From an uncultured Verrucomicrobiota bacterium (GTDB lineage: Bacteria; Verrucomicrobiota; Kiritimatiellia; RFP12; UBA1067), in the NCBI GenBank assembly GCA_946533675.1, contig CAMNBZ010000003.1, positions 33,014 through 97,013 of the forward strand: a stretch of DNA of 64,000 nucleotides, read 5' to 3'. Positions within the stretch are counted from its first letter, which is position 1. Every line of letters starts with the position of its first letter. The translations under genes and the position numbers were made by a program. Shown piece by piece: positions 9,361-12,300 of this stretch. Below the pieces are notes generated by a model that saw nothing but the letters and a program-made list of their open reading frames with translations, did not search any database and was not told the DNA's origin.

Positions 9361-12300
9361 ATGATTGAGAGGTGCGACAGCCGAATGCGCGCGCGGGTGC
9401 GAAAATGCGCGCAAGGGTTCGCTACAGCCGTAGCGACAGTTCTGTCATTTGCTGTTTTCGCCGCTCCTCTCATCGACGAAATCGATGTCTCCTCCGTCGG
9501 TCAGTACGCCGGTGTGGCCGGCGGCGACGCCGCCAGGCTGATCTACGAAAACGGCCGGCAGTACCTCGTTCACATCTTCACCAACACTTCGGCGTCCGCC
9601 ACCCTGACCATTGACAGCGCCCATACCATCGTTCCCGGCTCCGTGAGTCTCCTCCTCGTCGGCGGCGGCGGCGGCGGCGGCGGCGACTGCGGCGGCGGCG
9701 GCGGCGGCGGCGGTGTCGTCATCTCCAACAACATGACGCTCGCCAGCGGCACCTACACCGTGACCGTCGGCGCGGGCGCGGCGCAGACGGCGCACGCCCT
9801 GCGCGGCGCGAACGGCGGCAACTCGACGATTGAACGCGGCACGGAGCTCATCTATCAGGCGCTCGGCGGCGGCGGCGGTTCAAACTGCAACCAGGGCAGC
9901 GGCTCCTACCGCAACGCGGCGGCCGGCGGCTCGGGCGGCGGTTCGTCGCAGGGCGGCAACATCGGCGCCGCGCAGCAGCCGCTCAACGTCGTTTCGCCCG
10001 GCTACGGCCACGCCGGCGGCCTCGGCAGCGGCTATCGCGGCGGCGGCGGCGGCGGCGCGGGCGCGGTCGGTTCGCCCGCCAGCGGCACGGAAGGCGGCAA
10101 CGGCGGCGACGGCATCGCCTGCGACATCACCGGCACGGAAGTCTATTACGGCGGCGGCGGCGGCGGCGGCGTGCAGAACGCGGCGGCCGGCATCGGCTAC
10201 GGCGGCCTGGGCGGCGGCGGCGACGGCTCGCGCGAAGCCGTCGACGGTACCGAGGGCAAGCGCGGCACCGACGGCCTCGGCGGCGGCGGCGGCGGCGGCG
10301 GCGGCGACAACGGCAACACCAAAGGCGGCGGCGGCGGCAGCGGCATCATCGTCATCCGCTATGCGTTCACGAACGGTCCCTTGACGCCCGTCGCGCTTCT
10401 CACGGACGCGGAAGCGGCGGCGCTCGGCGGCGCGACGACGGAAAACTGCGCGTGGATCCGCCGGATTCTGAATGACGACGGCTCCAAGACGATCATCCAC
10501 TGCTGGACGAACGCGGCGGCCGCAGGCACGCTCCAGTTCAAGACGCTGGCGACGACCGTGGACGGCTCGGGCCGCGTCGTCGCGATCGGCGGCGGCGGCG
10601 GCGGCGGCAGCACGGCGGGCGGCGGTGGCGGCGCGGGCGGCATCGTCACGAATGCCTTTGAGCTGACGACCGACAGCTATACCATCGCCGTCGGCGCGGG
10701 CGGCGCGGGCGGTGCCGCGAGCAATGTGCGCAATCTGGGCGAAAACGGCGGCGATTCGACCGTGACCGATGCGACGCTCGGCACCGTCGTGGCGCGTGCC
10801 AAGGGCGGCGGCGGCGGCGGCACGCGCGGTTCGAGCACGGCGCACCGCGTCGGCAGGGACGGCGGTTCGGGCGGCGGTTCCAGCCGCGGCAGCACGGCGG
10901 GCGCGACGATCCAGGCGACGGCGGGCGTTCCGGCGGACGCGGCGCTGTCCTTCGGTTCGGCGGGCGGCCGCAACGCGAGCAACACGGACTACGGCGGCGG
11001 CGGCGGCGGCGCGGGCGGCGCGGGCGGCAACGCCACGGCGAGCGCGGGCGGCGCGGGCGGCCGCGGCCTTTCGCTCACGGCTTCGGGCTTCAGCCGCGTC
11101 TATGCCTGGGGCGGCACGGGCGGCAATGCGACCGACCGCGAACAGGCGGCGGCCGGCGAAGACGGCACGGGCGCGGGCGGTAACGGCGGTGCGTACGGCT
11201 ACATCAACAGCAAGGATACCGGTTTCGGCGGCGGCGCGGGCGGCAGCGGCATCGTGTTTGTGAGCTACGATCTGGCCGGCAGCACGGTGGATGTGCTGGA
11301 CGACGGCTCCGTTCTCTATTCGTTTACAAATGGCGTCGATCAGCTCGTTCTGCCGAAATACGCCCTTGCGCGCGTCTTCCTGGTCGGCGGCGGCGGCGGC
11401 GGCGCGGGACCTGGCAATGCCACGACAGCTCAGGGCGGCGCGGGCGGCGGCGGCGCGGGTGGCTTGATCGATAACGACCATGTCCTCTTGGCGGGCGGCA
11501 CGTACGCGATTACCGTCGGTGCGGGCGGCGCGGGCGGTGCGGCGGGCACCTCCAATCCGGGGTATGTCGGTTCGAATGGTCAACCCTCGCTGATGACCTC
11601 GGACGGTGGCAGCGTGACGAATTTCTGCGCCTGGGGCGGCGGCGGCGGCGGTATTCGATCGAATGGTAATCCCGGTGGTTCCGGCGGTGGTGGTTCGCGC
11701 TACAGCAACAATGCGACGGCAGGTCCAAAGACGGGCGGTGCCGCCACCCAGCCGACATCTGTCTGGGGCGGGTACGGCTTTAAGGGCGGCGACAGCACGG
11801 GGGCCTTTTATCAGGCGGGTGCCGGCGGCGGTGGCGCAGGTGGCGCGGGTGGCAATGTCGCGAAGGCCGGTACAGGCGGCGCGGGCGGTGACGGTCGGCT
11901 GAGTGATATTACCGGGACGCCGCACTACTATGCGGCGGGCGGCGGCGGCGGTGCGCGTACCGGTACAGGCGGTGCGGGCGGCAGCGGCATCGGCGGTGAT
12001 GGCGGCGGCGGTGCCACTACAACGCCGATCGCGGCGACGGCCGGCGCGGACGGCACAGGTTCGGGCGGCGGCGGCGGCCGTATGAGCGGCGCCGGCGGCA
12101 AGGGCGGCTCGGGTGTCGTGTATGTCCGCATTTTCCGCTATATGCCTGAGAAACCGATTGCGCGCAGCTTCGCCTATACGGGCGCGACGTTTACGGCCTT
12201 TGCGGAAGATACGTACGCGGAAAAGGCGTATACGCTGACGGGCGATTATGCGGCGAGCGCGGTGGGCGCTTACACGTTCACGGCCACGCCGAATGCGGGG

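Follow-up and report, generated by a model that had tools for sequence, protein, structure and literature searches.

The window analysed here, a 64,000-nucleotide stretch of contig CAMNBZ010000003.1 (assembly GCA_946533675.1) with a GC content of ~67%, comes from an uncultured Verrucomicrobiota bacterium, a member of the Kiritimatiellae from gut or rumen, and contains two very large genes in tandem. The first encodes giant protein 1 (P0001), which begins with a head of three tandem glycine-rich modules, and this head is the subject of the present analysis. The head follows a signal-peptide-like leader and, judging from that leader, would form the outer, N-terminal end of an exported protein, ahead of a body of 2,940 residues. 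The features of the gene and its downstream neighbours are presented in Table 1. Module boundaries were set by a hidden Markov model (HMM) built from the modules themselves. An earlier note on this DNA had placed the array at 9640-12135; the modules stand, and the start has to be moved to near nucleotide 9529. The module onset lies ~35-40 residues upstream of the first strand recognised in that note, and the additional part consists of three more beta-strands. Modules 2 and 3 are contiguous, while the lead-in motif of the linker between modules 1 and 2 resembles the stretch that precedes module 1 (the comparison also included the N-terminus of the orthologue P0002).

Table 1 Features of the giant protein 1 gene and of the genes that follow it. 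Positions refer to the window; residues are amino acids (aa) of giant protein 1; AF2, AlphaFold2; ORF, open reading frame.
Feature	Residues	Position	Strand	Basis
Giant protein 1 gene (P0001, 3,866 aa)		9361..20961	+	Single uninterrupted open frame, 3,866 codons
Signal-peptide-like leader: basic stretch, then hydrophobic FATAVATVLSFAVFAA	1-36	9361..9468	+	Read from translation
Module 1, Gly_rich_2, N-side type	57-337	9529..10371	+	PF21722, PHROG 2295, AF2, Foldseek, BFVD
Linker, 28 residues, with A-L-G-G-x-x-x-x-I-R-R-I lead-in		10372..10455	+	Sequence comparison
Module 2, Gly_rich_2, N-side type	366-639	10456..11277	+	PF21722, PHROG 2295, module tree, two-module model
Module 3, Gly_rich_2, conserved body-proximal type	641-927	11281..12141	+	PF21722, PHROG 2295, tree
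Second hypervariable stretch behind the head, beta-rich spacer	928-1085	12142..12615	+	Divergence from P0002
DUF2341 match (PF10102), where the conserved body starts	1139-1179	12775..12897	+	24.4 bits against a cut-off of 23.4, marginal
Small ORF of ~121 aa that overlaps giant gene 1 at its end and precedes giant gene 2		20945..21310	+	ORF list
Giant protein 2, ~5,260 aa		21288..37073	+	Laminin_G_3, TSP3_bac, DUF2141 (Pfam); position kept in L003-L005

Glycine makes up 30-42% of residues 100-900 of giant protein 1 and ~10% of the rest. The glycine runs are encoded by 16 perfect (GGC)n tracts of 4-9 repeats each (window 9661-12078), and GGC is used for 233 of the 282 glycine codons of the head. 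These tracts are a possible source of in-frame length change.

The three modules share 42-45% pairwise identity, with invariant non-glycine positions within the strand-like segments. The local alignment scores of module pairs lie far above those of composition-preserving shuffles (z = 14-19). When every glycine was kept fixed and the other residues were permuted, z was still 7-9 and therefore the order shared by the modules exceeds their glycine content. The earlier note had described three paralogous modules that are not simple low complexity, and both statements are upheld by the identities, the HMM-placed units and the alignment beyond glycine content. The motif grammar it proposed (poly-G with a hydrophobic strand, then x-Y-x-[IV]-x-V-G-A-G, then G-x-N-G-G-x-S, and at the end G-S-G-[IV][IV]-x-[IV]-[RS]-[YI]) is also found in the modules, the sole deviation being GSNGQPS in module 3.

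Each module scores above the gathering cut-off of 24.3 bits for PF21722 (Gly_rich_2, a profile of 226 positions), with 80.2, 70.6 and 44.0 bits over profile positions 12-225, 18-225 and 18-224 for modules 1, 2 and 3, respectively. The earlier note was thus correct in pointing to a similar glycine-rich domain in phage tail and uncharacterised bacterial proteins. PHROG 2295, a family of phage proteins without an assigned function, is matched as well, with 158, 87.5 and 114.8 bits, respectively, and a weak partial match to PHROG 863 ('tail fiber assembly', 27 bits) lies within module 2. In a Pfam scan of the whole of giant protein 1 the three PF21722 stretches were accompanied by the marginal DUF2341 match, while the corresponding NCBIfam scan gave no match. 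Pfam scans of single modules found no family besides PF21722 even at E <= 1, and PF12810, the family of the ALK-type domain, was not matched. The family name Gly_rich_2 carries no tested function. Literature searches on PF21722/Gly_rich_2 and on giant bacterial proteins with such domains revealed nothing relevant.

The structure of module 1 was predicted with AlphaFold2 from a 59-sequence alignment of homologous modules. The model has a predicted local distance difference test score (pLDDT) of 94.5 and a predicted template-modelling score (pTM) of 0.92, and no segment falls below a pLDDT of 50. It contains 11 short strands, and long confident stretches are left unassigned, as neither helix nor strand, by DSSP; these confident glycine runs are compatible with a polyglycine-II or extended conformation. 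In a Foldseek search of the PDB the best match to module 1 was the fibre of phage Pam3 (7ypx_A; E 2e-7, template-modelling (TM) score 0.50-0.55), with 7yfw also matched, and two chains of the Bxb1 tail tip (9d93) were found at E 3e-7 and 3e-6 (TM 0.39-0.52). Many ligand-binding domains of ALK/LTK followed at E 4e-3 to 8e-2 and TM 0.22-0.29; a good local fit was seen only with 7lir_A, at a root-mean-square deviation of 3.6 Å over 133 columns. Among the predicted viral structures in BFVD there were 243 matches to module 1 at E 1e-3, with TM up to 0.85, most of them named 'Glycine-rich domain-containing protein' and coming from cyanophages, pelagiphages, the haloarchaeal virus HF2 and prasinoviruses. 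A sequence-profile search of the PDB returned only chance glycine-run matches (protocadherin-10) and a weak match to the Pam3 fibre (E 0.37). A fold comparison was needed to bring out the relationship.

Because of the confident model and the matches to Pam3 gp24 and Bxb1, the predicted fold of the module is a tumour necrosis factor (TNF)-like sandwich with a glycine lattice, and not a beta-helix or a disordered chain. The beta-helix or beta-solenoid suggested in the earlier note was rejected, since the 11 short strands form a sandwich and no solenoid occurs among the significant fold matches. A reading of the head as low-complexity glycine-rich sequence without a defined fold, for example a disordered linker, would accord with its glycine content of 30-35% and with (GGC)n tracts of up to nine repeats. 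We give this reading almost no weight, given the high pLDDT along the whole of module 1, the similarity of the modules beyond glycine placement and the matches to curated profiles and solved structures. In a two-module model (aa 338-935, modules 2 and 3) both domains are folded, with a pLDDT of 86.6 and a pTM of 0.57, and neither model contains helices of note. The possibility of a single-chain pseudo-trimer that mimics a trimeric fibre tip was dropped on the basis of this pTM and of the existence of orthologues with two or four modules.

A search with the head, which admits only lengths of 0.55-1.75 times that of the query and so recovers giants only, found 279 proteins, nearly every one a giant with PF21722. 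The best 120 of these 279 homologues were counted with the module HMM and all have between 2 and 11 modules. When 1.84 billion representative proteins were searched exhaustively with module 1 (phmmer), 9,030 proteins matched at E <= 1e-3, of which 2,405 reached E <= 1e-10; their lengths range from ~460 to 6,400 residues. The domain is present in 25 of 41 relatives of the source genome, with up to 23 matches per genome. The triple array is common, and giant protein 1 is an ordinary member of a catalogued family; the view that a triple array heading a giant protein is unusual has to be abandoned. The source genome encodes a further triple array on its contig 21 (L015 5206..7761, - strand), where a protein of 851 aa has nothing besides a signal peptide (MKKLLLMLGAATAVATAQA) and three Gly_rich_2 modules in tandem. 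Modules 1 and 2 of that protein are mutually very similar, and its gene adjoins a same-strand gene for a secreted protein of 535 aa.

The body of giant protein 1 defines an orthologue family of its own. In the sets retrieved, ~26 full-length orthologues share the 2,940-residue body at 99% coverage and 32-88% identity, and the named contigs place this family in metagenome-assembled genomes (MAGs) of ruminant or gut Kiritimatiellae, Lentisphaerae and Verrucomicrobia. MAGs that carry the labels Lachnospira hominis and Azospirillum sp. 51_20 also have body orthologues, at 38-39% identity, on the short contigs L007 and L008; in all likelihood these are mis-binned contigs of the Planctomycetes-Verrucomicrobia-Chlamydiae (PVC) group and not true occurrences in those taxa. 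The number of modules differs between the orthologues: most have two, P0001 and P0147 have three, and P0003, P0005 and P0121 have four. In a maximum-likelihood tree of 60 modules from the orthologues, the last, body-proximal module of every protein falls into one clade and all N-side modules into a second, looser group (support 99/99). Module 3 of P0001 sits within the last-module clade, and module 2 of P0001 falls together with the next-to-last modules of those orthologues that have four (support 97/94).

The closest relative of P0001 is P0002, and the divergence between the two is spread very unevenly along the protein. The bodies are 88-93% identical at the amino acid level, with a synonymous divergence (dS) of 0.12-0.19. 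The last modules (module 3 of P0001 and module 2 of P0002) are 79% identical with a dS of 0.56, the N-side modules 44% identical with a dS of 0.89, and the stretch of aa 928-1085 behind the head 44% identical with a dS of 1.06 and a DNA identity of 0.5-0.6. The high-identity alignment restarts at the conserved module-end motif GAGGSGIV. The ratio of non-synonymous to synonymous divergence (dN/dS) is 0.3-0.7 throughout. The leader is conserved between the two proteins once the P0002 gene is extended upstream in frame. On contig L003 (3280-3444) the called start of P0002 gives a protein without a signal peptide, and the upstream extension supplies a leader that hardly differs from the one in P0001 (…ERCDSWMRARVRKCAQGFATVVA…). 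As the in-frame extension restores a P0001-like leader, the database start of P0002 is probably too far downstream.

The reverse pattern is seen between P0002 and P0004, whose heads are 76-92% identical on bodies that are mostly 27-64% identical; this pair is direct evidence of heads moving between distant orthologues. Head and body thus have different histories and, since these histories disagree, the dS of the head is saturated and dN/dS is below one, the comparison points to replacement of heads by recombination and not to fast divergence by point mutation. Protein global alignment and blastn gave different answers as to which P0001 module is the 'extra' one in comparison with P0002. The DNA identity is ~0.5-0.65 over aa 30-640, and the whole N-side block is therefore best treated as replaced, in preference to a description with a single inserted module. 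The stretch of aa 928-1085 looks like a beta-rich spacer of the immunoglobulin type and may have been exchanged jointly with the head or separately.

Upstream of giant gene 1 lie genes for a prepilin-type DUF1559 protein, a GDP-mannose dehydratase and ManC, and downstream of the giant pair are acetate kinase, a PilM-secretin cluster, Rho, UvrA and RecA. The order of a small four-helix-bundle gene, giant gene 1, the small overlapping ORF and giant gene 2 is kept in L003-L005, three independent contigs that carry P0002, and a 121-aa gene is called on them at the position equivalent to that of the small ORF. A Pfam scan of giant protein 2 found no Gly_rich_2. The PilM-secretin cluster (window 41221-48573) comprises a PilM-like gene, two unassigned genes, a gene for a TSP3-repeat protein and an unusually long secretin of 1,180 aa, and may be the export route for both giants.

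This context bears on the question of whether giant gene 1 could belong to a prophage, or be a tail-fibre gene derived from a phage, instead of encoding a cellular surface protein. Sequence and fold relatives of the modules are abundant in phages (PHROG 2295, BFVD, Pam3 and Bxb1). The neighbours of the giant pair are cellular housekeeping and secretion genes, however, with no phage structural genes seen at the locus, and the 2,940-residue body and the order of the locus are conserved across MAGs of the Kiritimatiellae, Lentisphaerae and Verrucomicrobia. The N-terminal helical domain used for trimerisation and docking in phage fibres of the Pam3 gp24 type is also missing: the leader runs directly into module 1, and the signal peptide occupies the place of the baseplate-docking helical domain of Pam3 gp24. 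A phage origin of this kind is thus very improbable.

By analogy with the solved phage relatives, the most likely role of the modules, which we hold with moderate confidence, would be that of binding tips that set the specificity of a long surface fibre. In each module about a dozen glycine runs would continue the strands of the sandwich and, as in Pam3 gp24, would pack side by side as a hydrogen-bonded lattice. The lattice would be a rigid scaffold presenting the short variable loops between the glycine runs, and these loops would contact a glycan or another surface ligand, analogous to what is proposed for phage fibres. The presence of several modules could provide multivalency or several specificities, and the exchange of N-side modules would alter the ligands to which the cell attaches or the agents that attach to it. 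The distribution of variation can be compared with this scheme. Within the domain family the column entropy is 0.49 bits for glycines, 2.43 for strands and 2.93 for other non-strand columns, and module 3 of P0001 and its orthologue in P0002 agree at 95% of the glycine, 75% of the strand and 63% of the loop positions.

The same figures are open to a structural explanation, in which the modules are mainly rigid, protease-resistant blocks, or a cap, that extend or protect the fibre in the gut and have no specific ligand. The conserved parts are indeed the glycine lattice and the strands, the domain occurs in many unrelated architectures in 2-11 copies, and dN/dS is less than one throughout. A passive spacer, however, gives no reason for the replacement of the head over a body that is ~90% identical, and in the solved phage relatives the domain is situated at the receptor-recognising end (PMC9608196). 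We regard a purely structural role as unlikely. Still less probable is a role in which the modules touch lipids or membranes via hydrophobic residues at the loop tips, as suggested for the polyglycine-rich tail domains of mycobacteriophages. For phage domains with this fold, the idea has been put forward in two preprints (PMC13252515; bioRxiv 10.64898/2026.07.24.740622), and module 1 has chains of the Bxb1 tail tip among its closest structural matches. This unvalidated suggestion was made for the lipid-rich envelope of mycobacteria, and the loops between the glycine runs of giant protein 1 are rich in the polar residues S, T, N and D.

Several points weigh against the assignment of the modules as binding tips. 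The loops are just moderately more variable than the strands, and the saturated dS of the head fits allele replacement without showing selection for new specificities, with dN/dS at 0.3-0.7. The solved relatives are the source both for the polyglycine-II geometry and for placing the variable loops at one pole, the two-module model gives no confident packing between the modules, and the leader is the one feature that points to a surface location for giant protein 1. Binding at the tip is itself a proposal for most of the phage members (bioRxiv 10.64898/2026.07.24.740622; PMC13252515), and no functional study of a cellular Gly_rich_2 member was found in the literature.

A further proposal, which we put forward tentatively and with more doubt than conviction, is that the N-side modules are an exchangeable specificity cassette on a giant surface fibre that is conserved in PVC bacteria of the gut, with the conserved signal peptide and the closing G-S-G-I-V-x-I-R-Y of the modules as the points of exchange. 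If so, the cassette would be the cellular counterpart of the swapping of receptor-binding domains in phage fibres. A swap would re-target the host glycan, food particle or partner cell held by the bacterium, or could instead allow escape from phages that use the fibre or from antibodies. The domain, its fold, tandem arrays and cassette swapping are already known, and the head of giant protein 1 adds little to them as a discovery; a modest point of interest is the clear exchange of heads between orthologous giant proteins. P0001, P0002 and P0004, which combine near-identical bodies with unrelated heads and vice versa, offer a clean natural comparison, usable to ask whether glycine-lattice domains set binding specificity in gut Kiritimatiellae.

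The closest solved fold is that of Pam3 gp24 (7YPX and 7YFW), with which module 1 shares 20-23% identity and the combination of a sandwich and a lattice with variable distal loops. In the gp24 structure the strands of a TNF-like sandwich run on into a glycine-rich domain, where twelve glycine-rich motifs form a four-layer lattice; its less conserved distal tip is proposed to function in host recognition, and the protein resembles S16 gp38 and the Caenorhabditis elegans ALK domain (PMC9608196). The gp24 protein is a homotrimer of 280 residues that docks through a helical domain at its N-terminus and has its own chaperone, gp25. Unlike gp24, giant protein 1 has three tandem copies per chain behind a signal peptide and lacks the helical domain, and neither a recognisable chaperone nor a phage context was found at its locus. 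The polyglycine-rich proteins of the Bxb1 tail tip (9D93, chains Qa and Qb) match the modules in fold, but are virion components attached to the central fibre, for which a role in lipid contact has been proposed (PMC13252515). The 'TG' domain of ALK/LTK (7NX4, 7LIR and 7LRZ; PF12810) also combines a beta-sandwich with a glycine lattice, in keeping with the weak fold matches. It occurs as one copy in a metazoan cytokine receptor, whereas the modules have no PF12810 match and module 1 has a global TM of only 0.22-0.29 to it. The adhesin tip gp38 of Salmonella phage S16 (6F45) presents variable receptor-binding loops on a polyglycine lattice (PMC9608196), but this lattice has three layers and another supporting domain, and gp38 is not in the best 50 fold matches of module 1. 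With PF21722 and PHROG 2295, the modules have in common a domain length of ~230-290 aa and the same order of strands and glycine runs. At the level of the domain there is no difference from these families, and what distinguishes giant protein 1 is the three-copy head on its specific 2,940-residue body.

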